Positions 616 through 18,600 of a DNA stretch of 23,184 bases are shown here, one piece after another. Source of the DNA: Elusimicrobiota bacterium (GTDB lineage Bacteria > Elusimicrobiota > UBA8919); assembly GCA_043816185.1 (NCBI GenBank), contig JBDRIG010000099.1:1-23184 (forward strand), read 5' to 3'. Each line of letters starts with the position of its first letter. Within the stretch, counting starts at the first letter, position 1. The translations under genes and the position numbers were made by a program. The notes beneath the pieces are model-generated. The model was not told the origin of the DNA. It searched no databases and worked only from the letters and a program-made list of their open reading frames with translations.

Positions 616-3600
616 ATGATTAACTATTTTCGTCGACCAACAGACATTCTCGATTATATAGAAATTCCGCCTATAAGAAGGATTATTGCATCTATAACAC
701 TGATTAGTTTTTTATTAACGATTCTATGGACAAACGGATTGGCGGAAGTTGCTGGAAATGCTGGAAATGCTGGAAATGCTGAAAATGCTGAAAACGCTCA
801 AAGTGGCGAAAAGACAGGAAAAAAAGGCACGCAAGAATCATCTGTGTATTATAAATGGGCCACCGTTCGCGAACAAGCACAACATGGGATATTAACAGAG
901 ATTACGGATAGCGAAAAAAATCAGGTATATAGGTTTAATAAAGAAGGTAAACTTGTCGAATTAGACGATAGAAACAGTGGGAAGACACAAAGGTTTGAGT
1001 ATGACAGCCAAGGCAATGCGAGTATAAAAACCATAAAAAGCAAAGATGTAGAAAATCGAGAAATAGAAAACGCTCCGCAGTTAGCGCAATTATTGCCACA
1101 GCAAATACGACAGCAAATAGACGTTGTTCAACAAGTACAAACCATACCACAAAAAACCGCTTTGTTAGCAGAAGCAGTTAATAACTTTTTTTCTGGAGAA
1201 GATACTGAATCTAACAAATCTGGTGAAGGAGAAGGAACTAAATCTCAGGCCAACAAACCTCAATCACCAGCCAGTGTTTCTTCATGGTTAAAAAAATATA
1301 GTGATAGCGATCCACAAAAACAACAAGGAATGCTTGCAGAGATTGGTGCTACTGAGACAGAAGTAAAAAATCTATCAGAAGAAACAAAGCAAAAGATTGC
1401 CGATTATTTAGCACTCAGTGGCTCAAAACTTCCCGATGGTGCAGTTACAACCAAAGAGTTATCTGACAGGAAAGAAGGTCTTGCTGGACTAATAGACCGC
1501 GCAAGAGCAGCAGTCACACTTCTTTTTGTAAATATAATTAGACAAGTTGCAGGTAAAAAAACACAAAAAGAAAATGCTGGTGTGGAAATATCCGTTGAAG
1601 ATATACAAAATATAGCACGACAACTTGGTATCGAATTAAATGCAACCAAAACAAATATTGACGAACTTAAAGGTGTACTTGCAAAAAATCCTGTTATAGT
1701 GCATACGCAGGATTCTAACGGCGATAGAATGTTTCTAATTATTACTGATATAAAAGGTGAAGATGTTGTTGGTATTGATTCAGACGGAAAAACACGGGTT
1801 TTAATTCCGTTGTCTGAATTTAGAGCAAAATGGACAGGCAAAATGTTGTCGTTAGCAATGACAGGAGAGGCACTTGATGCGGAGACAAAGAAAAATACTA
1901 AGGGCACATTTTTTGCACAATTATTTAACGAAATAAAAAGAGTATTTAGTGGAAGTCTTGTAGCAGTAGATGCAGGTTCACAAGTAGCGACGACAGAGGC
2001 AATAGGCGAGAGAGATACTTCTGTCGTTGCGATTATTGCGAACGTTGCGAGCTTAGCAAGCCCCGATGTTGTTGCAAAAAGCCCCAAAGGAGTGACGGAG
2101 CAACCTCAAGAGACTGCCACGATTGTTTCTGACGACACCACAACAACACAAACAGATGCAGAAAAAGCCCTCCAATCGATAGAAGCATGGTTGGGCGAAT
2201 ATATAAAAGCCGACCCACTTAAAAAAGCGCAGATGGCAGCGACGCTTGGTTTATCCACCGACCAATTAGCAAACCTATCTATTGAAACCGCAGGACAAAT
2301 CTTAAATTATTTAAAGTCACAGGGTGATAAAATCTTCAACTGTGCAATTCAGGCACTGAAAAATATCTTCACAGGACAGGGCGTAGAGTTCAATCTCACA
2401 GATGTAGCCACAAAAGCAATTTTGATTGACATTATAACTGGTAATTTAAAAATAGATTCCAATACGGGATACGATGCTTCGCAATTGCAGTTGTCGATGT
2501 TTGCGATACAAAAGACGGCGGAACTTCATAATGTCCAGTTGACTGGCTATTCTACTGATATAAACGGATTACAACAGGCGATTGCTGGTGATAGTGGCGT
2601 GGTTGTTCATCTTGATTTGGGTAATGGGATGGGACATTTTGTTGTTGTCACAAGCATCAAAGATGGTTTAGTAACATACACCGATTCCGATGGTAAATCG
2701 AAGACAGCCTCGCAAGAAGAGTTCCAAAAACAGTGGACGGGGAACATTCTTTCAACAGTTGAAATTGCTGCTGGCAAAGCACTATCGGTAGTGACTCTAC
2801 AAACGCTTCGCGGAGCATTCAATATTGGTGCGATAATAGCAGCAATAATAAAATGGATAATGAAAGCAATAATGGATCTAATAATGGGATTGTTGAAAAA
2901 AATATTTACACAAGTTTTTAAGGATATGCTTAAGAAAGTACTTGTAAAAGCAATAACTCAAGCATTTACGAAGTTGATAACCAAGGCCATAATGCAATAC
3001 GCTTTTACCCGTAAAGTTGACGCAAAGGCGTTATGGAAGGGGTTTGTGAAGGACTTTGCATTCTCATTTGTACTTAATTTTGTTTGTGAATTACCAAAGT
3101 TACTCAAGGGATTTAAAATTGCATTTTCACTCGAGGGATTTAAAATTGGAGAACTTGATATTGGTATAGCACTTGGGAAAGTGTTTAATTTAATTGGTGA
3201 CTTTGGAACAAATCCATGGCTTAAAGGGCTTCAGTTGGGTCTACAAATAGCATATAAAAATGCTATAAAAGAATCGAAGAAAGAAGGCGGTAAAGAAGTA
3301 CCAGAGTGGTTAGAAAACACTGTTGAATTTGTTGATTTAGCGGTTAGTATAGGTGCATATTATGATAGTTATATGGCTGCACCATCTTCAAAAACAAATA
3401 CGATAGCAGATGCACGAGCACCACCAGTTGATCCGGCACTGGCAGCACAAAAAGTTGCTTTGGAAGCACCACCAGAAGTTACTCCGGTAGTAGAAGTAGC
3501 ACCACTAGTTACTCAAGCGGATAGTTCTAACCTCAAAACCGAGCCCGAGACACTCGCCAAGGAATCCAAAGCAGCAGCACAACCAGTAGGTAGTTCAGGA

Positions 3601-6600
3601 TGGAAAGATCTTGGAAAAATCATATTACAAATAATTAAACAAGTGGTTGATAGTATTGTATCATTTTTACAAAAAACTAGTAATTTTTTACAAAAAATTG
3701 ATGCTAATAAAAATATAGAATTATCTTTCAAGTTATATGACATACAGAGTGGAATAGAAAAACTACGCGAAAAAAAGAGTTATGAAAAAACTGCTTCTGC
3801 GGAAGATAATTTTATGGCAGCCGCGTCTATGTTATTTGGTAGTTTATCAGGTTCATTTAAGTCCTCGCTTGAAATCACACAAAATATTTCTCAGTTATTA
3901 AAAGCCGTTGTAAATATGGTATTATCTGGGAAACAATTTAAGTATGAAACAAAATTAAAAGACCTTAAAGATAAATACGATTTAACCGATGAAGAATATG
4001 ATGAAATAATGAAAACAATGGACAAAGGTGATATAGTTGACTGGAAAAAATATGGGATGGAAGATAATAATAAAAAGTTTTCAGATTCATTAAGAGAATT
4101 AAATAAAGAAAACTACAATGCAACACGTGGATGGTCAATTGCACAATCTGTTTTAAATATTTCAGTTTCAATAACAGCGGTTATTAAAAATATTAAACCA
4201 CCCCCACAAGGTATTACTCTTGCAGGGGCGAATATGCTACAAAACAATAATATTACTTATAGTGCCTTTACAGTAGTCGGTGATATATTCAATATAATGG
4301 AATTAAGGAAGAGTTATGACAACAAAGGTATAATAAATCTTGGGAATACTTTTAAGGAAACAGCAAGTACAATTAAACTTTATTCCGACTTCACTGCGAC
4401 CGTCGTAGATTTAGTAGGTGCTGTAAAAACCCAGGGCTTGAAGTGGGATTATAATATACACACTTTTGATAAAAAAACTGACAAGGTTTTGGTTTTAGCA
4501 ACGACCTTTAAAGTAGATGGTAAACCCTTTGAAATTGTATACAAAGAAGGTATTACGATTGAAAAAGCAAATGAAGAAGCAAATAAAGCCGCAAAAGCCG
4601 CAAAAGCCGCAGACATTAATAAACTTCCAAAAACCATTACAGAGGACCCACGCAAACTTCAACCCGCTGATTCTAAGGGACAAGGAGTTTCTTCTGCCCA
4701 AGGTCAAGCAGGAACTTCTGGTGTTCCATCTGGGTCAGACCATTTTGATCCTGCCACCGTTGTATGGATTAAAAAGCTTTTTGAGAAAATTGGAGAAGTT
4801 AAAAGTATTAAGATTGGTAATTATTCGATTTCTTATGATAAAGGCAGTGATTTATTGTCTACAACCGTTTACGATAAATCAAACAATCCTCTCTATACCA
4901 TAAACTCTTTTAATCCTTCTGACAAATCTTCTGGTTTTTCTGACAGTATTACATTGCACGTAGACAAAGAATATAAAAAGGGGCAATCAACAATAAAATT
5001 GTCTAATGGTTTAGAACTTAAAGTTAGTGAATTAGAAAAACAATTCAATAATAAAGTTAAAATTGCATATTCTCCTAACGACAAAGTTACTATGGTTTAT
5101 GACACGAAAAATGGCAGTATGTCGACAACTATGGAAATTTCTGAGGACAAAACTGTCGAGTTTGGTTCTAAAACGTATCTTACTAAAGAAAAGGTTTTAG
5201 CCGAAACGTATCTTACTAAAGAATGGGTTTTAGCCAAATTTAGAGAACTGGAAAAGCAAAAATCAAAAACTGATAAATCAATAACTGATAAAGCAATAAT
5301 TGACACTCTTTGTTCTAGTACTAATTTAGGTGATAAAAACGAACTGGGTATTACTAATATCACCATAATCTCCGAAATCTCCGATGTTGTTAGTAGTGAG
5401 GTAAAAAGAGAGGTTAAAAAATTTATTATTCAGGAAACCGACTCAGGAAAAGACGAGGCCAAAAAAGTCGCACTGACCGAAGAAGAAAAACTATTACAAT
5501 ATTCTAAGGACATTAGTGTCATATCTGCTGAGAGAGTAGACAGTAATAATCTTACTATCACTACTTCCAAAGGAACTGCTCCCAAAGAAACATATAAAGC
5601 CAACATTTCTGCATTTAACATTCCTGGTATTTCTGGCAGCGTGACACTTTTGGACGATGAAAACAAAATTATTGCTAATGTGGACAAAGTGGCTCAAGGA
5701 TTTTACAATGTTAGTTATAAATCTACGGTCGGCAATGATGTCCAGCCGAAGATTGTTTCTATAATTGTTTCTACTAATGAAATGACTGGTAATAAACTAC
5801 AGTTTACCGATGGCCAGTTAGTTCCTGTTGGTATGGATAATAAACCTAATGGTACAACAAAAATAGCTATAGATGGTCTTGAAGTTGCGCTTACCTGGGA
5901 TGATAAAGAAAAGAAAGTTACAACAAGTTTTGGTGGAGTAGAAAAAGACAAAAAATATAATTTACCTTTAATTTTATTTCCTGCGGCAAGATGTAAGTTG
6001 ACGGGTTTAGAAGCAGTTGAATTTACTGGTATAGAAAATGGTGGTTTACAATTTTCTCCGAAAAATGGCGAAATTAAGTTACTTAATGGCGATAAAATAA
6101 CCTTTAAAGATTTCAATTTAATTTTGAATAGTGGAAAAATAGCGACTTCTGCGGCTTCTGAGGAGAAGACAGCGACTCCTGCGACTTCTGAGAAAATGGC
6201 GACTCCTGCGATTTCTGGAGAAACAATGATTTCTGGCGAAATGATTTTGAAGCAACGCAAATATACAAAAGTAACAAACTTCAACCAGCTAAAAATTAGC
6301 GATTCTGTCGCAGATAACAGTGGTTCATACAAAACAAATGAATCCGGCCAAAAAACAAATTCTGATGGTAGTAAGACGATTATTTCAGGTAATTTAACTA
6401 CTGAGGTAATCTTTAATAAAAAATCCGGCCAAGAAGATGCTTCTGTTACCATTCACAAAAACGGTATAAAAACATCGTATAATGAAAGTGAAAGTTTAAC
6501 AACAACATCCAAATACAGTGTAGCATCTTACAAAAATGATATTTTGGAAAGCGGGACTGCCTACGAGCAATTAGATATTAAGCTTGAAGATAGCACGTTA

Positions 6601-9600
6601 CTAGTTTATAAGGAAGAAACAAAGGCTGGTGTGCATGGAAATCCTCCAACGATCACTGCATCCATAGGTGATACTGAAATAAATTCAAAGAACATTAAAG
6701 AACTGCAAGAAAAATACAATAAACTTTACACGCTCGCGGATGGTAATAAGACAAAATTAGGACTGCTACTCATGTACAACGGTGGTGTTACCATACTAAC
6801 TGGTAAGAATATTACATTTGACACAAACTACAAAAATACAGGGAGACAGGCACTTATAGAAACAGGTGTGGCAAAAGGTATAAATTTGGTTCATTATGCT
6901 GATGGGGTCACTATTATTGGATCTGAAGGTGATGAGAATGCAGTTGCTGGACATAAAGGTATGTTTAACGAATTTAATGGTATGCAGTTACAGGTTGGTG
7001 ACGAGTATAGTTTAAATAAAATTGCGGCGAATAAATGGGATGAAGCAATTGTTAGCGAAAAAGGAGCAATCATTGTCCCTCTCAAATATGGCAAGACACT
7101 TAGTATTGTTAAAACCCCTGTTACCGAAACTACTGATTATGATTATTCCAAGTTGAAGGGAGAATTAGAAGATGGAGTTGAAATAAAGTCAATCAGTAAA
7201 GTTGATATAATTATTAAAAATGCAGAAGGCAATCCTGTTGCTGGAGGACAACAAACTTTGTATGTGGCAAATGGTGCTTCCGGGCAAATCGGACAAATCA
7301 TATTAGTCAATGGAGGTGCAGTTCTACAAACGGAATCAAAAATATTTGTAAAGATAGGTGTTGGTGGTATCTGGAAAAGTGTAGGAACAACAGAAAAAAT
7401 AGATGGAACTTTCGATGAATTACCTGGGACCAATAAAAACAATGCCAAAACTAAACAAACAACAACAATTACTACCAAGGATGCTACCGATATAGGGATA
7501 TTATTATCCGCAGGAGTTAAACAGGGTGTAAATTATTTTGATAGTAATGGTGAGTTGGTATGCTCACTCACTTCTGATGTTCACGGGAACTATATTGCTG
7601 TTGGTAGTAGGGATAGTAAAGGAAATTTTGTAACAGTATTATTCGACACAAAAAAAGACAAAGGTGCACTCCCAGCAAAAGACAAAGACAAAGTCAAAAA
7701 AGGTGCACTCCCAGCAAAAGCACTCCCAGCAAAAGACAAAGGTGCACTCCCAGCAAAAGCACTCCCAGCAAAAGACAAAGGTGCACTCCCAGCAGAAGCA
7801 CTCCCAGCAAAAGACAAAGGTGCACTCCCAGCAGAAGCACCTTTAACAGAAGCAGAAGCCATAGCAATAATAAAAAATATATACTTAACTGATTTCTCAC
7901 AGTCTGATGTTGTAAAATTTTCGGATGATCCAGCCGGCGCCGAAGTATTAAAAGATTTAGAGCAAGTGATTAAAAAGTCAAATAGTGTCGCAAATACCTT
8001 CTTCAAAGATAATCCAAAAGCATCATCCGTACAAATTAAAAAAGATAAGAGTAACTATGTTGTTTCTATTGCCAAGGACGGCCAAGAATCTATTAATGTT
8101 TTTGATAAAGATGGCAAAGCGATGTATATCTATAGCAATAATAAAGGGGAAGGGGGCATTTCTGTCTATAGAATTTCTGTCTATAGATATAACGATAAAA
8201 TTATTGATCAAAAAGGCAGGTGCAAACCGGCTGAAATTGGAGAAACCATAATCATTGGTAATAATGTCAAAGTAAACATTGCTGTTCTTAAACAAAACTT
8301 TGGTAGAGAAGTTTACATTATTGATGTGTTTGGAATGATGTTGAATGGACAAGAGAAAATAATGGTAATTCAGCAACTTGAAAATGCTAATCCGAAAAAA
8401 GCTGAAACCCCATCGGAGCCGCAGAAAAAAGCTGAAACGAAAGTCGATGCTGCTGATGATATTAAAAAGCAAACAAGAGTATGCGACCCACTTGTAGAAG
8501 ATAAAGATGTAACCATTACTGATAATATTAAAGAGCAAATAACAGTATTCAACTCACTTGTAAAAGTTGAAAATATAACCATCAGCAATGATGCGTATAC
8601 TGTTTTTAAAATTGCAGGTGGTGACGAATTAGCTATTTCACAAGGAGCAATAAATAGATCGGTAAACATAACTATTCTTGATGGTGACGGCGGAAGAATT
8701 GGTAATATATCTAAAAACAAACTTGGTGGTTATGATGTAATGTATGGTGGCGTGGGCTATACAGGTAAGGCAGTTTTTGGTTTATTGCCTCCAGTCTCGG
8801 CATACGAAAAATCAACGGACGCAAAATCAGCAACCATAACAAAACTCGCTGATATAAAATATATTCTACAAACAGACAATACTGTTTCGGCCAACATAAC
8901 TGCCAGAAAGGGCTATGGTGAGTTTGAATTTACTGTGTGGGAAGATGGTGCTAATATAACGGCACATAAGAAAGGTTATAGTGAGTTAGGATCTACTGCC
9001 AATGAATTGGACACGAGCGGATTCGCTAATATAACCTTAATAATAGGTAAGGACACAGCAGACAAGGATGTGATTTCAGTTAAAGACATAACAGGTTCAT
9101 GGATTCAGCCAATATCTAAATCAGATGTTGGTTCATTGGTCAAGGTCTACGATAGTAAAAATAAAAAAGGTGTGATGAATTTTCAGTCACTTGATGGGGT
9201 ACTTACTCCTATTACAGCCACCGATCGCAAGTCACAAACAATCACGACAAATTTTAGTGCTATCGGGACATCGGCGACTGAACGAGAAGTTACCGCTAGT
9301 GTAGTTATCACGAAAGATAAAAAAGGTAATTATTTTGTATCTAAAACAGACGCAAAACTTAAGAATAGTACAAAGGTTAATATTACTACTTTTAATGGTA
9401 AATTGTATGCATTAGCCAATGGTGAAGAAAATACGACAACAACTAGTGCGTTGAATGTTAAAGGCGAATCAACTGTGATTTCCACTACTTTGGTGGGAAC
9501 AAAAGATGGGATTAATATAGGTGCGTCAAAAAGAACGGGGGATGACATTGAAGTAGTATTTCGTAACTTTAATGACAAACTCTATGCACTAGCAGATGGA

Positions 9601-12600
9601 CAAAAAATTGACGGCGATAGTTGGACAGCAAAAAATACAGAAATTGATGGTAAAAAAAGATTAGCACTGGTTAGAGCTTTAACATCGGACGAATGTAAAA
9701 ATATTACCACATTGGATAAAAAACTATCCGTAAATAATGATACAGCAATAGAAATAGAAGTTGCTATGTTATCTGAAGGCGTGTTCGTCGTTCTTGGAGA
9801 TGTTAAATGTCAATACGCTAATAGTGAAAAAAGTAAAGATGCCGCTACATTAGAGAAAGGAGCGATAATTTCACGCGATAACGATAATAAGTTAATTGTT
9901 ATTAAGGGAGAGTTAGCGGTAGAAGGTGGTAATAATATTATAATTGCTAAAAGCAAGGAAGGTGGCGGCGATATCAAAGAAGCAAAGACCAACAAAATTA
10001 AGGGTAAAAGCAAGGGAGTTGGCGGCGATGTCCAAAAAGTAAATACCAAAGCTGTAGTAATAGAAATTGGGGATAGCTATGTTGTTTCTAATGGAAAAGT
10101 GTCGATAAGAAATGGACAATTTGTGGTTATTGGCGATGGTACGATATTAAAGAAAGGTTCAAACTTGGTGGGTATTGGTCCTGTTAGTGGCGGTGACCTG
10201 AAGCTGGTTTTGAATAATAATGGGGAGTTGGTTTATCGTTCTGCTGACAATAGAATAGTATCTACAACACAATTTGATAAAAAAACGGGATTGGGTTTGG
10301 TGACACACTACGACGAAAAGGGTATATCTGGATTATCAATTATAGACGAAAATGTGAATAAGGGCGCTTTACAAAAAGTAGTAGATTCAAATAAAATAGA
10401 TGGAACCGAAAAAACCTTATTTATTACTGGTGATATTAGTAAAGGTAATGGCAGGGCATATATTTTGTCCGATAGGTGTATTTCTCGTGCCGATAATGGC
10501 AAATATGCATCAACCAATGGTGAAGTAAAAACAAAATGTGTGGTAGAAAATGGTATAATTAACGGGAAAAATTTTAAAATGTACGGGCTAATTGATGGTA
10601 AATGGCGTCAAGGATACATCACAAAAGACGCTAATAATAGTAATCAGCAGATTTTTGTCGTAGTTGATAATGGAGAACTCGTATCTGTAAGAAAGTTATT
10701 GGTTGATAATGAAGGCAAGTATAGAATAGGTAAAAAAGTAATTGGTGCTGGTATAGTGGTACAAGAAGATATAGATAAAAAAGGAACAAATATAGTTGCA
10801 ACCTGGAATGGGAAGAATGCACCAGGATTATACTTGGAAACATTTGTGGGTTCTAACGGTAAAAGATCAAAAACAGCAGAAATAGTAATGAATGATGGCA
10901 GCAAAGTTCATATAGCGATTATGTTTGGTGAATTAAAACTGCTTACTGGTGCAAAAGGTCTAAATCTTGAGAAAAATGGTGAGTTTAAAGATGGAGGCAG
11001 ACTAGTAAAAATCAAAGAATTTAAATTTGATAATGAAACAGGTGCGATAACAGTATATGGTGTTATGACGCTTTCCAAAGAACAAAAATGGGTGTCCACA
11101 AGCGATAACATATCACAACATTATGGTGCTAAAGTTGGTAAAGAAAGTAAAGAAAGTTATAAGTGTACTGGAACAGCAAGAATAGATCAAAGTAAACATA
11201 CTGAAAATATTGTTATTACAACTACAGATGGCGAAGTAAAATTAGGAATAGCATTTGGGTTGCAAAAATATTTTGCCGATGGTGGTCTAAATAAAAATAA
11301 CACACAAGTAACACATTTTTGTAAAGGGAGCAAAATTATTGCTGGGACAGAGGTTAATTTATCTGACGGGAAAACATCAACTGTACAAAAAGAAAAAGAC
11401 TACAAAATAAATGTTAAAAATAATAACATAGAAATAGAACAAGGAACAATAATCGAAATACATAGAGACGGTGGAATAATCAATAATTTAGACCATATTA
11501 CGAAAGGTTCTGTGAAAATTGAGCAAAAAGTTGATATACATGATGCGAAGAAGAATAAAAATATATATGGAGGTAATAGAACGGTTACCTATATGCCAAA
11601 TGCTGATCCACAAGTAGATGTTAAGGGAGATATTTCACAGGTTTCCATTGGTGATGGAAGGTTTCATATTGACTTGGAATCAACCGAATTTGAAGTAGGG
11701 CGGGGTTTTATTAGATCAGTATGGGACTGTGTATTATCTGTTCCTGAACTTTTGGGAGGTACGTTAAGTGGGATTGTAGGGATAGGTTTAGATTCGCCCA
11801 AAATAATTCAAACAAGTTATAAATTATTTGTTAGTGCAGTAAACAGATTGTATGGCGAAAGAGATTTGTCTGATGACACTAAATTTACTGTAGGACGAGT
11901 GGCTGTAACAGTAATAATTGCAGTACTAACTTTTGTGCCGATCGGTAGGATTGTAACATTTGCGGGTACTTTATTAAAATCTTTAGCAAAGCCTTTAATA
12001 ACTCTTATTGCACGAGTAACTCCAGTGACTGTCAAATTTATTGGCAGAATGATGAATAGAATATTCAATCCTTTTAGTATGAGGTTTACTGATAATATAG
12101 TACATAAAATAGTAATGAAGATATTTCCTAATGCTATAACAGCAAGCAGTGGTGTTGTAGGAAATGTAATAGTGCAATTTAGTGTGAAGTCTACTGAAGC
12201 ATTGCTAAAGATAGCTTTACCAATGTTAAGAAATGCTATTATTTGGGGCAATCCTTATGTAAGTTTGCCATTGGTAGGTAAAAACGGAGTTATAGGTTCT
12301 GTTTTGATAGATTCACAGCTTGTAAAAAAACTTGGTATTGACATTGACCGTGAACTTTATCAAGCAATAGCTAATTTAGCATTTTTTGCTCCTATACTTG
12401 CTAGTGGAATGAAATCTCCCGCATCAGAATCCATCGCCGAATCGCAAATTTCGCTATTAGGTGCAATTAAGCAATCAGCGATTAAATTATCGCAGAGAAT
12501 AGGGAATTTTATTCATCATCCTGCTCGGTCAATGAAAGATATAACTCGCAAGAGTCTTTTTGAAGGTATTTGTAATGCAATTAAAAAAGTCTCTTCCTGG

Positions 12601-15600
12601 GACACAATAAAAGCTGGTAAAAAAAAATTAGTTGAAAAAGGGTTGAAAGGTGTTAAAAAAACTGTTGGATCAAAAATAAAAGAAAATATGATAAATTTTG
12701 TCCCGAGAACAATTGGGATGGTAAGTGATATAGCAATGTTTCAGACATCGATAGGTTTAGTGGGTGGATGTATAAACACTTCATTAGGTGGCAAGGAAAG
12801 GCGATTTTTAATATTTTACATACCTAAGTTTAGTAGCGTAAAAGATGCTATTATAAAAACATCAGATATTGCTGTGGATACCATTACTGATTATAGAATG
12901 TGGTTATTTGCCGTTGCTATTGGCGTGTTAGGTCCTTTATTTACACCTATTTTTAGAAATTTTTCAGTACTCGGACCAATTATGAGATGGATAGGAGGCA
13001 AAAACGTTTTTGTTGGTGGTAAATTTGCTACTGGAAGGTTGGGTAGATATCAAAGATTCATATACGAAGAGGCATTCCAAGAGAGACTACCAGAAATATT
13101 GATGGGGAAATTAGGTATAACCGGAACATGGTCAGAAGTTGTACAAGAAATGTTTGATAGGCGTGGTGGTGGCGGGTCTTCAAAAAATTATAATACTGCT
13201 GTAAGTGACTTGGGAGGGGACTATATTAATTCTGTTGAAAATATAAATTCGCTAAATAATAAAGATGAACTTTCAAATATTGTGGGTGTAATGAGCAAGC
13301 AATTGAACGAAAGATTATCGCAAAACGGCAATGGGGTATCTGTTTCGGTAGATATAGTATCTGTGGGTGGTGGTGTTAAGGGCGGTATTGAGGTGAAAGT
13401 AAAAATTGTTAATGATACGATTCCTGATATATCATTCGGTGTTCAAGAGATATACCTAAACACCGTCGAGGAATTACAAAATTTAATGCTAAGTATTGGC
13501 GAAGCGGCAGTTAGTGGTGTGAGCTTATCATCCGATGAGGTAGCAAGTCGTATTGCAGAAAACAATTTGATTTTGAATAATAGTGAAAACAATAGTGAAC
13601 TGGGTATTAATTGTCTATCTGCGGAAGAAAAAATTAGTCTCCTTTCAGGCATGTCTGGTTTTAGTAATATCTTTGGTGGTGATTTAAATGTTATTGATAA
13701 AAGTGGTAGAATAAGCATATCCGCTATAGACAATGCGATAAAAGAACGGAACCAATCGCTAACTAACAACGAATTATTATTAAAATATGTTATAGGCATA
13801 GTACCAATTATAGAAAATATAAAAGATTCTCTCACAAAAATACATCTAACAAAAACTGTTGATACAACAATTAACATAAAAGATTCTATCACAAAAACAC
13901 AGCTAACAGAAACTGTTGATACAACAATTAACATATTTGTAGAAAAAGTTAAAAATAATTCTCCGCCTGCATCTGTTGCACCATCTGTTGCACAAAATTT
14001 AATAAACCTTTCCGCCCTTTCTAATCTCTCCGCAACTATACTCAATAGTGAACTTGGAACTGAGATAAAGACAAAAATTGTTTCTAGTGCATTACCTTCA
14101 ATATCAGGGGCAATACCAAATACAACTTTTCTTACCAATCTTGCCGATCCCACTATTCAAATCCAAAATGCTCAATTTATTACTTCACTAATAATGATAC
14201 TCAAATATTTACGTCAAAACAATAATACAGGTGCACTGCATTCATTATTTGTCTCTGTGATGAAAAACCAGTCGCTGTTAAAATTAGCTGAACACACTCC
14301 CCTATCACATGATGGTTACACTGCACTCGATTATTTATCTAGTATTTCTGAAAATATAGACGTAGGTAAACTATTGCAAGAAGCAGAAGTAGAAGCACAA
14401 AAAGTAGAAGCAGATCTTGTTGCTGCCAGCGACGACGCGGTTAAAATTGCGGGCGGCTTGACACCAGACCAAGATATTATGGGTAGTGCAGGTAGGGAGA
14501 AAATAATTAAGACCAACAGCGGAATAAAAGAGATAACAGATGAAAAAGGGAAAAAAGAAAAACTGGAAGAGAAAGATAGAGATAAAAAGAAAGATGAAAA
14601 AGAAGAAGAAAAAAAGAGAGATTTAGACCAGAAAAATAATCTTGTTGCTGCCAGTAAGGATTTATCAGCAAAATCTCCAATACAGATTGCTGCAACTGTA
14701 AAGCGACTTGCTATAATCACTAAAATATTGGCATTACAAAATCGTGCAAGAAAGAAAATACAATATACTACTATATCAAATATATCAAAACTATTATTAG
14801 AGTTAAATATTTCTGATACACCGTTGTCAGCAGAAGAAATTTCTTCGGAACTGGTTTATCAGTATATTGCAAGTTTAGCGACATTGCAAAGTATCAGTAG
14901 TGAAAGCGAAGATAAAAAAATTCAAAAAATTGCGGAATCGATTGAGAAAAAAATAAAAGATGTAACTGAATCTCTGAAGATTGAGCGTAATGATGACGCA
15001 AAAGAATTTTTCAGCGCAGCCTCTAAGTTAGCAGATAGTGGGAAAAAAGATGAAGGAAATATTTCACGTGACGAAAATGGTATTTCCGACGTTGTAGAAG
15101 AGGGCGTAAAAGAAAGGAACAAAGCCACAGAAAATAAAGCACATACAACACTTAAAGAAAAATTAGCAAGAGCCGTAGTTGAGTTTATTAGTTTACTGCC
15201 CGACAGTACGAAAAAACAGGATAGACTAAAGAAGTATGCGATGCTTTTCTATAAAGAGGATATTGATGTTGTCCAAAAAGAAATGGAATTACTTGAGAGC
15301 GAGATTATGGACGAGATCGCAGCGTGGAATGAAGTTGACTCAGCGTTGATTAAAAATGACAGTAATCAATTAAAAGAAATAAAAAAGAAAATTACTAATA
15401 AAAAAGTCAATTTGGCAGATATATACAATGAGGAAGTTGGAAATGAGGGGGTTGGAAGAAAGATTTTAACAAAGATATTGACAGCAAAAGATGAGGCTCT
15501 AAAAAATCGTGTCACCAGTGAGGGTCTAACAGATGATATAAAATTAGAAGCGATCGCACTTTATAGTTTAACAGCGAGTATATTTAAAAGGTGGTTAAAT

Positions 15601-18600
15601 AAAGAAAAAACAGCGTTAGCGGGACTACATCGCGAGCAGATAATGGCCACTTTGGTTTTACTCAAGGGTTATAAAATAACAGAATTAGCTACTGGTGAAG
15701 GTAAGGCTATCATAGGTTTGGTTGCCGCCGCAGTTGAGTCGCTTAATGGAAATGGTGCATTCTTGATAAAACCGAAGACATCGGAGGCTGAAGATAATTA
15801 TAAAGAGTATGGTAATCCATTCGCTGAATTATTAGGAAAGACCATTGGCGTTGTAACCGACAATATGGATGATAGTGAAAAGAAAGAAGCTTACAAAAAA
15901 GATATCACATATATTAGCGTGTCGAATTGGGCATTTGATACAGGTCACGATATGCTTGATATAAAAAGTGATAACGAAAAACTTATAGAGAGAGACCTCA
16001 GTAAGGTTTCAGTTATAATTGATGAAGTAGATTCTGTGTTAATAGACCAGGCAATGACTAATTTTATACGTTCGAAAGGCAATGAAGAAGCAACCGAAGA
16101 AGTTAAGTCTATAAGACGTGCATTTGCTAAGATAGCCAGAGACAAACAATTTAGTGTTACCAAAGTCGCAAGAGAAGTAGTTGATAAAGAAGATGTAGCA
16201 AAAGAAGAACAAAAAATGGATAGTACATATGCTGTACTCAACTCTGCACGTGGTACCATTTCTGCTACGGATATAGGTAACGAAAAAGCGATAGATTTAT
16301 TGGGAAAATTTTTTACAGAAGAACAGTTAATTGATAACAAGCTGGTAGAGAAAAAAGGCAAGAAACTGGAACTTACCGAAGACGGCATTAGGTATCTTAG
16401 TGATGCCCTACAGGCCGAGTATGTTTATATAGAAAATGTTCAATATCGTATTGGTAAAAATATTGAGAACGACAAGGGAGACAATGAAATATTGCTTATA
16501 TCTAAGGAGACAGGTGTAACACAATATGGACAGAGATTGAATCAGCTTATGCAGGCAATTGAAGCAAAGCACGAAGTAAAAGATGGAATAAAAATTATGG
16601 GCGAAAATAGGACGACCTCAAGTATAAGTGCTAAAAACGTCCTGAGCGAGTACGGAAAAGTATCGGGTATGACAGGAACGGCACGGTATGGTGAGGCTCC
16701 CAAGATATTTAAGAAACTTTATAATTTATCAGTAGTAGTTATACCTTCGCATAATCCATTAATGAGGAAAGACGAGCCGATGAATGTGTTTAAAACAGAT
16801 GAAGAAAGAATAGAAAAATTGGTAGAGATAATAAAAATTGCGTTAAGAAATAATCAGCCTATACTTATAAATACATTAGACGTCGATGCAAGTGAAAAAT
16901 TGGCAGAAGTTTTAAAAGAAAAGCTTGGTGTCAATGTTCCACTTAGGGTATTAAATGCCAGCGTGGCAGAACAAGAAGAAGAAATTATTAAAAAGGCAGG
17001 AAGCAGTGGAATAACTATTGCTACCAATATGGCTGGAAGAGGAACGGATATAAAGTTAAGTGATGAAATATCGGAGAAGGGTGGTCTCGTGGAAGTTATA
17101 TTCGGGATAAATGATTCTGAGCGTACAGATATGCAGTCAAGAGGTCGTAGTGGTAGACAGGGTCAGAATGGCAAAACCTATATGTTCGTATCGCTTGAAT
17201 CTGATGGGAACTTTTTAGAGAGAGGTGGAGTTGGTAATATCTTATTCAAAATAACTGCTGGCGTGGCACCACAATTCATATTAAAGTACATTTTTAATAA
17301 AGCCCAAAAAAATATTGAAAAAATGAATGCGAAAAGTTTATATAATCAGACAAGTCAATCAGACAAGTTGTATGAATTGCAGATTATGCTGAAAAAAGAT
17401 GTTGAAATTATAGAAAAACAGGTCGTTCAAGTAAAAGGAGTCAATCCTGAATCAAGTGCATTGAGGCTCGAGCTTGAGAAGTTATTTAAGAAATATTGTC
17501 ATACAGACAAAGAGGTAAATATAAAAAAATTACAGGAAGCAATATCAAAAGCGTTCGGTGTAAATCTCAATATTACCAATCATGCTGGTAGCACTGTCGA
17601 TAATTTATTTAAAATCATATATGGAAATCTCATATCTCATTTCATAGGAGAAGCAAGAAGAGATAATATAGATTATGAAAAGGAAGCATTTTTCCATAGG
17701 TTAGAAGATATAGGAAGAGATGCTAAGACACCTCGTGAATATAACAAAGGTATGTTTAAAGAATATGTTGAGTTGATAAAAAATATAACAAACGCAGAAG
17801 CAATTACAGAGGAGATTCTCAATAAAACAGTTAATAACAAAATGGAGACGATAGCTAAAGCAAGAGAAGAAGAAGCAAAGAAAAAAGTGATTGAGCAGGT
17901 GGATTTAGCCATCGCTGGAATAAAAGTTGCAGAAAAAATAAAAGCAGCAAAAGAAACAGAAGTTGATCAGGTGAGTGTTACCACAGAAGTTGAAACAGAA
18001 AAAGATGAAGCACTGTCTTTATTTGATAAAGTAAAAGTGGCGATAAAAACTGTAAAAGAAGTGGTAGGGGTTGTTGTGGAATCAAGCGGTAAACGGGTTG
18101 TACTACTACAGCGTCGAAATGTTCAACAAGCCCAATCAGTTAAGAGTGAAGTTAAAACAATAAATATAGATGTTGCAGAAGGATTTACACAAGCAAAGCA
18201 GGAAGAATCTGCACAAGAGGCGAAAGCGAAATTAACGTTGGAAATTGCGAAAGTGCTGGGCAACAACGATAATGTTAGTTTAGGTGTTAGTATAGGTAGT
18301 AAAAACATTGGCAATTATACATTACCGAATAGTGTTGCAGAATATTTTGTGGCTAATCCGGAACAATTAAATGGAGCAATAAACAATAAATCCATAAACC
18401 TTATAGATGTAGATGGTCAATTCGTTCTTGTTGGAACCACACAAAATGGCAAGTTTGTAATGATAATGGTGGATTTGGACAAGGAAGTAACTGGTGAATA
18501 TCAGAGAATAATAAATTCAATATCTGATCCAACCTATGCAGGAAATATTGGTGCAAAAATTACAGAAAAAGGTGTTATAGAAATAGGTAATGTTCAGTAT

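Follow-up and report, generated by a model that had tools for sequence, protein, structure and literature searches.

The cutting of double-glycine leaders in trans by C39 peptidases is already known, as is one C39 toxin that processes itself in cis, and self-cutting of giant bacterial proteins has been speculated upon. In the crystal structure of LahT150 with its leader (Bobeica et al. 2019, PMC6363468), residues −1 to −3 are, according to the accessible sections of that paper, linear and residues −4 to −11 form a two-turn helix, while positions −4, −7 and −12 occupy a hydrophobic groove and a charge at −4 or −7 abolishes LahT processing. StbD has a C39 toxin domain that cleaves, in cis and behind a Gly-Gly pair, the polypeptide to which it belongs, and C183A and Gly-to-Ser replacements block this cutting, as described in the available part of the preprint (10.64898/2026.05.07.723447). 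For giant SecA-bearing proteins, the available portion of West-Roberts et al. 2023 (10.1101/2023.11.21.568195) states that it is unknown whether they act whole or cut and that cleavage-point information was lacking; a 2026 Omnitrophota preprint mentions C39 once and gives no cleavage sites. Here, we describe P0002, a protein of 7,130 aa encoded by a single open reading frame (positions 616-22008, forward strand) that fills a 23,184-base window of DNA from an Elusimicrobiota bacterium (contig JBDRIG010000099.1, assembly GCA_043816185.1). The window is the entire contig (1-23184) and beyond the giant frame holds only short flanks. Nine residues behind the second of two C39 domains, P0002 carries a double-glycine-type leader motif, LSVVTLQTLRGA (aa 723-734; 2782-2817, forward strand), and we consider it somewhat probable that peptidase and motif together form a self-contained cassette, in which the motif, as tethered leader, is the substrate and a single cut would fall after Ala734. 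The cassette recurs, as read from sequence, in giant and polymorphic surface proteins.

A C39 peptidase and a leader-like motif in one chain

The Pfam profile Peptidase_C39 (PF03412) covers two stretches near the N-terminus of P0002 (75.9 bits against a cut-off of 22), and both copies were recovered when the whole genome was scanned with it. The second module copy (aa 516-713; 2161-2754, on the forward strand like all features named below) combines a helical N-subdomain with a C39 peptidase domain of the active type, as indicated by PF03412, structure prediction and Foldseek. Its Cys/His/Asp triad is complete in the aligned columns: Cys576 (codon 2341-2343), the predicted nucleophile, stands in an NCA motif ('NCAIQ'), His674 (2635-2637) in 'GHFVVV', and Asp690 (2683-2685) aligns to the Asp of 'ADP' in PCAT1, which is catalytic there. 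A nine-residue tether, TVEIAAGKA (aa 714-722; 2755-2781), leads from the domain into the motif, so that the translated context reads ...AAGKA-LSVVTLQTLRGA-FNIGAIIAAIIKWIMKAIMDLIMGLLKKIFTQVFKDMLKKVLVK..., the chain downstream of Ala734 continuing as FNIGAIIAAIIKWIM... The predicted scissile bond, Ala734-Phe735, lies between nucleotides 2817 and 2818. The preliminary description of this DNA had read Leu at −12, −7 and −4, Ser at −11 and Gly-Ala at −2 and −1 from positions 2782-2817, and the translation agrees with it exactly; this register matches the leader pattern LSxxELxxIxG[GAS]. The motif is internal (residue 723 of 7,130) and does not stand at the N-terminus of a small exported precursor, the place of a double-glycine leader.

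By itself the motif is not significant, because a loose pattern, [LIVMF]x4[LIVMF]x2[LIVMF]xG[GAS], has four matches in the 7,130 aa and is thus near chance level in P0002. A position matrix was therefore built from 50 motifs of related modules with Cys and His, P0002 and its orthologue P0008 being left out. With this matrix aa 723-734 ranked first among 7,118 positions, at 12.5 bits, a score reached at a frequency of 3.0e-5 among 364,898 background positions. By chance, about 0.2 such sites would be expected over the full length of P0002, and about 0.002 if only the 60 residues following the C39 domain are counted. The second-best site, IMFGELKLLTGA (aa 3435-3446, window 10918-10953), scored 9.6 bits, and about one match of this quality is expected at the length of P0002. 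Processing of P0002 as a polyprotein at multiple sites is not claimed, since this next-best leader-like site is only at chance level.

The fold of the second copy was modelled with AlphaFold2 (AF2) for aa 516-800 from a 32-sequence alignment and judged by per-residue confidence (pLDDT) and DSSP; mean pLDDT was 86.8. Both AF2 and Foldseek recovered the papain-like alpha/beta fold of PEP domains, and Foldseek matched the model with probability 1.00 to 6v9z (PCAT1 with substrate), 6mpz (LahT150 with leader), 3k8u (ComA), 8ssm (StbD C39 toxin) and 5xe9, a further match being 3zua, 'A C39-like domain'. The StbD-type structures 8ssk and 8ssm share 14-17% identity with the second copy, a likeness at the level of the fold only. 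Along the model pLDDT was 91-98 through aa 735, save one ten-residue block at 78, and 41-68 thereafter, falling sharply directly past Ala734. Within the tail, residues −10 to −5 were helical and residues −3 and −2 extended, with pLDDT above 90 across the motif. In the model this tail geometry is the same as that published for the LahT150 leader, and confidence and secondary structure together point to docking of the leader in the catalytic cleft.

The first module copy (aa 219-435; 1270-1920; PF03412 match at nucleotides 1582-1857) was recognised by profile match as a C39-like domain that is catalytically dead, Gly taking the place of the Cys and Met that of the His. It ends in a degenerate leader-like tail, LDAETKKNTKGT (aa 420-431; 1873-1908), which was placed by profile alignment and AF2 and is followed by FFAQLF. 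This tail (LDxETKKNTKGTFF) is near-invariant in the orthologous heads of P0003, P0008-P0011 and P0013, and its strong conservation is, to judge from the residues kept, the conservation of a predicted non-cleavable variant.

Distribution of the motif among related modules

A word-indexed search gave five giant relatives, and an exhaustive phmmer search with aa 516-740 as query returned 275 proteins at E<=0.001, 150 of which were taken further. A profile search located 195 module copies in 153 proteins, and 178 of these copies include the final strand with 20 or more residues after it. The motif was called where the score of a 12-column matrix (−12 to −1) exceeded the 99th percentile of the controls, 3,000 windows taken from parts of the same proteins that lie outside the module tails. 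By this measure, of the 178 copies whose tail could be read, 150 had the motif; across the family its start lies 13-48 residues from the final strand. The preliminary description had named conservation in homologues beforehand as a test on which its proposal could fall, and the motif proved widely kept. Its central idea, a protease and a double-glycine-type recognition sequence in one chain, likewise holds, with an intact triad in P0002 and a family-wide pairing of the two elements.

The family divides at the nucleophile column, where 79 module copies have Cys and 78 have Ser. In the Cys/His copies the third triad column is Asp or Glu in 72 of 79, and the column of Gln569, a candidate oxyanion-hole residue seven residues ahead of Cys576 in P0002, is Gln in 24 of 79. 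Among Cys/His copies with a readable tail the motif was called in 52 of 73, with the consensus L-[TS]-[DE]-x-E-[LM]-[KM]-x-I-[KR]-G-A, which agrees at each position with the register of the LSxxELxxIxGG leader (L−12, S/T−11, E−8, L/M−7, I−4, G−2, A/S−1). Position −1 was Gly, Ala or Ser in 50 of these 52 motifs, and in none of the ten copies that lack both Cys and His, the first copy of P0002 among them, where Thr or Asn is found instead. Hydrophobic residues at both −7 and −4 occurred in 36 of 52 Cys/His copies and again in none of the ten dead ones. This joint loss of site and catalytic residues counts in favour of cleavage.

Homology within the family mostly stops at the proposed bond. In 104 of the 195 copies the profile alignment breaks off within positions 217-223, the site lying between 219 and 220. 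The sequence beyond is unrelated between proteins; some continue with coiled coil, Hint domains or transmembrane bundles, others with low-complexity sequence that is acidic or rich in Gly. In P0013 (aa 609-688) and P0042 (aa 513-592) the Hint (intein/hedgehog-type) autoprocessing domains begin a few residues past the G-[AS] of the leader, which places two different self-cutting devices back to back. Past the site of P0002 itself only P0008 can be aligned, at 28% identity and with similarity resuming about 44 residues downstream.

A comparison among loci of 151 Elusimicrobiota genomes, in which some control loci encode proteins already contained in the first relative set, gave the motif in 18 of 27 modules inside long frames and in none of five small stand-alone C39 frames. 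PF03412 matches were found in 32 of these 151 genomes, that of the window included. Most of the matches lie within open frames of 1,000-12,189 aa, the remainder in small frames of 197-364 aa, and among the matches listed none falls in a frame of the size usual for ABC exporters.

The Ser-for-Cys copies (found among P0035-P0153, for example P0041, P0074 and P0104, and also P0006 and P0007) retain the His, and their third residue is Asp or Glu in 78 of 78 aligned. Their motif reads L-S-x-x-[EQ]-A-[QK]-x-I-R-G-[AS]-F-[WF], and directly after the site a transmembrane-like hydrophobic segment follows in 69 of 76 Ser/His modules, often behind RHS repeats. This group may represent a natural serine form of the papain-fold peptidase.

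Proposed self-cutting and its alternatives

In the mechanism that we favour, the second C39 domain (Cys576/His674/Asp690) would hold the sequence behind it in its own substrate groove by way of the nine-residue tether. The short helix from −10 to −5 would present Leu−12, Leu−7 and Leu−4, Arg-Gly-Ala would lie extended in the active-site cleft, and the domain would make a single cut after Ala734. This cut would free an exported head of about 690 residues, comprising YD-like repeats, the dead C39-like module and the active module, and the body would be left with Phe735 as its new N-terminus, two residues ahead of a membrane helix. Hydrolysis of the bond is inferred, and so are its occurrence in cis as against between copies, the topology of P0002 and the effect of releasing the head.

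Several observations weigh against such a cut. The consensus Glu−8 is replaced by Thr in the motif of P0002, and 21 of the 73 Cys/His copies have no motif. Of the Ser-for-Cys copies, 76 of 77 keep it, most with Ala, Thr or Glu instead of Leu or Met at −7, so that conservation of the motif does not track the cysteine nucleophile. Gly−2 is retained in ten of ten dead copies, which points to a structural constraint, and the dead copies all belong to one lineage, so that the covariation of site and catalysis amounts essentially to one evolutionary event. AF2 docks the tail of the dead first copy of P0002 in the same manner (helix 208-213, strand 215-217, pLDDT 93 and 79 in two ten-residue blocks). 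Docking thus needs no catalysis and may be purely architectural, and of the docking model called for by the preliminary description the geometry stands, a helix followed by an extended tail lying on the C39 domain, while its value as a sign of cleavage is diminished. An exported head would furthermore place a thiol enzyme in an oxidising compartment, whereas auto-processing of StbD needs reducing conditions, according to the preprint (10.64898/2026.05.07.723447). Finally, cleavage is so far a prediction from sequence for every member of the family.

Much of this evidence would equally suit a tail that docks and is never cut, serving as a permanent pseudo-substrate or strap that caps, and so autoinhibits, the C39 groove or completes the fold, with the bond between 734 and 735 left intact. 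The docked degenerate tail of the first copy, the invariant Gly−2 of the dead copies and the motif kept in the Ser-for-Cys copies all speak for such a role. The C39-like domain of HlyB is moreover known as a non-catalytic substrate binder (cited in the available part of West-Roberts et al. 2023), and its structure, 3zua, is among the Foldseek matches. A strap does not readily account for the restriction of position −1 to the Gly, Ala or Ser that C39 peptidases require, a restriction relaxed to Thr or Asn where the catalytic residues are gone, nor for the intact triad with its conserved third column. The end of homology at the bond is as found at polymorphic-toxin processing sites, and the C39 domain of StbD is able to cut its own linker, as the accessible portion of that preprint has it (10.64898/2026.05.07.723447). 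We regard an uncleaved tail, the main rival to self-cutting, as possible, if on the doubtful side.

Cleavage had originally been linked to a different outcome. The preliminary description saw in the residues after the site a 'core peptide', a cationic amphipathic helix resembling class II bacteriocins or phenol-soluble modulins, which would be unmasked by the cut and attack a foreign membrane from the tip of a long stalk. Residues 735-800 are indeed helical in the AF2 model, with a net charge of +10 and a hydrophobic moment of up to 0.53, and the segments found after the site in the Ser/His relatives, as printed in their sequences, are ones that we take to resemble membrane-active toxins. No discrete peptide is in evidence, however, as 6,396 residues of P0002 lie beyond Ala734, and the first 26 of these are of transmembrane-grade hydrophobicity. 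The helix at aa 737-760 (2824-2895; AF2 helix with pLDDT 54-68) scores as an ordinary transmembrane helix (Kyte-Doolittle 1.89, 19-residue mean), and the amphipathic helical stretch that follows it (aa 761-800; 2896-3015), delimited by charge and hydrophobic moment, is rich in Lys. Because a Lys-rich stretch after such a helix fits the positive-inside rule, aa 737-760 looks like an anchor in the membrane of the producer, which would leave the head outside and the Lys-rich part in the cytoplasm; the topology of P0002 was judged from hydropathy and this rule only. The counterpart in P0008 is hydrophobic and far less cationic, about +3 by count from its sequence. A transmembrane-like segment by Kyte-Doolittle hydropathy stands behind just 6 of 52 Cys/His modules, as opposed to the large majority of Ser/His modules. 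When aa 735-930 were compared with Pfam and NCBIfam no bacteriocin or phenol-soluble modulin match was obtained, a sequence search of the PDB gave spurious matches only (E=0.29), and the best score in a protein atlas was 0.83, below recognition level, a row of the SseC family at 0.79 being taken as noise. A conserved core among homologues also fails, as the downstream sequence differs between relatives. The discrete toxic peptide and the penetrating tip are accordingly not supported, and a bacteriocin-like role of this helix is very unlikely.

That the leader likeness is a functionless relic or chance product, namely the inherited linker by which, at the N-terminal end of a peptidase-containing ABC exporter (PCAT), the C39 domain joins the first transmembrane helix, is scarcely credible: NCBIfam does place aa 627-796 in collinear alignment with positions 42-212 of its models for PCAT-type exporters (C39 plus the region of the first transmembrane helix) and the loose pattern is at chance level, but these models reach 41 and 32 bits where their cut-offs are 500 and 853 and Pfam found no ABC domains, while the motif scores far above controls, is kept without a transmembrane segment behind it in 46 of 52 Cys/His copies and is missing from the five stand-alone C39 frames.

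Giant bacterial proteins are a recognised open problem, and for P0002 the proposed self-cutting cassette names an exact bond, Ala734-Phe735, by a rule that extends to about 150 modules among its relatives. If it is true, double-glycine processing would extend from small exported peptides cut in trans to the self-processing of huge membrane proteins. A wider and more tentative proposal, which we hold to be possible and little more, is that C39 peptidase and tethered leader form a general device, portable from one giant or polymorphic surface protein to another, that cuts its own chain in a single turnover with Cys or Ser as nucleophile, defines the cut points of such proteins and in P0002 sheds the head of about 690 residues to leave a free N-terminus at the membrane helix. 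In that event the cut points of many giant proteins would be readable from sequence alone, and the large group of Ser-for-Cys relatives flagged by the cassette survey would present a papain-fold peptidase that naturally uses Ser-His-Asp/Glu, an adaptation to the oxidising conditions outside the cell.

Setting of the gene and comparison with known systems

At its N-terminus P0002 carries a hydrophobic segment (aa 19-42; 670-741; Kyte-Doolittle 1.78), either a signal peptide or a signal anchor, preceded by Arg6/7 and Arg21/22 and followed by ...TNGLA-EVAG. The segment is kept in the aligned heads of P0008-P0013, P0028 and P0036, and on account of this signal the N-terminal head is probably exported. 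Further hydrophobic clusters were seen by hydropathy at about aa 3755-4114 and 6221-6284. Late in the chain, at about aa 4948-5484 (15457-17067), lies a SecA-like ATPase that matches Pfam SecA_DEAD and P-loop_SecA with E-values of 6e-41 and 2e-30. Since the NCBIfam SecA models score 218-291 bits on P0002, far under their cut-offs of 725-1493, this ATPase is divergent. Within the beta-rich body a tandem low-complexity repeat, KGALPAK(A/D)..., extends over about six units (aa 2349-2410; window 7660-7845). Upstream of the gene an A/T-rich short unit (...TTTTTCACAAA...) stands in about three head-to-tail copies at about 500-560 of the window, 60-110 bases ahead of the start codon at 616.

The genome of the bacterium, 1.44 Mb in 112 contigs and 94% complete, gave no PF03412 match besides the two in the giant frame, which in an assembly of this completeness and fragmentation is not proof of absence. 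The same scan of this genome found no separate exporter-type peptidase able to read the motif, which counts in favour of the built-in domain acting on it. In an orthologue survey the giant gene was matched in 8 of 41 genomes, that of the window included, and in just one of ten other genomes of the same family, namely one of the same genus, so that its distribution is patchy.

Several described systems share part of this arrangement. With the PEP domains of the PCAT/AMS type (LahT150, 6mpz; PCAT1, 6v9z and 4ry2; ComA, 3k8u) the second copy of P0002 has in common the fold, the Cys-His-Asp triad, the register at −12, −11, −7, −4, −2 and −1 and the predicted geometry of the bound leader. It differs in that enzyme and putative substrate are one chain, with the leader tethered to the C-terminus of the peptidase and the motif internal, and in that the C39 domain is probably outside the cytoplasm. 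The exporter architecture of PCATs was not recovered either, as Pfam gave no match to ABC_membrane or ABC_tran in P0002. The C39-like domains of the HlyB type (3zua) resemble the first copy, which likewise has neither Cys nor His, whereas in P0002 this domain is placed within a giant protein and retains a degenerate tethered tail.

In the cysteine protease domains of MARTX and TcdA-B, the aspartyl autoproteolysis of Rhs proteins and the Hint domains, a built-in protease acts at a conserved junction and so sets portions of a giant secreted protein free. The logic of these autoprocessing devices is like the one proposed here, while protease family and recognition sequence are unrelated.

An experimental precedent is offered by StbD-CT/Cpe1, where, in the available part of the preprint (10.64898/2026.05.07.723447), a C39 domain inside a very large secreted protein is shown to cut in cis at a Gly-Gly/Ala bond in the adjacent linker. 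The StbD site is N-terminal to the domain and its diglycine lies in a flexible linker, no leader-like helix being mentioned in that part, whereas the proposed site of P0002 is C-terminal and comes with a full leader helix. The StbD-CT peptidase is also itself the toxin, cleaving GyrB/ParE, and with its C-terminal site P0002 is not of the StbD/Cpe1 type. A fused C-terminal leader cassette and this specific bond were not found in the literature searched, outside the scope of which fell subscription journals and bioRxiv supplements.

In overall architecture P0002 agrees with the giant SecA-bearing proteins of Omnitrophota and other phyla, for which a C39 domain near an N-terminal signal, transmembrane segments and a late divergent SecA_DEAD domain are described in the available portion of West-Roberts et al. 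2023 (10.1101/2023.11.21.568195). Compared with the giants treated there, P0002 comes from Elusimicrobiota and is, with 7,130 aa, much smaller. To what that portion of the work says of giant proteins, the present analysis adds the proposal of a specific bond and of a family-wide recognition motif.

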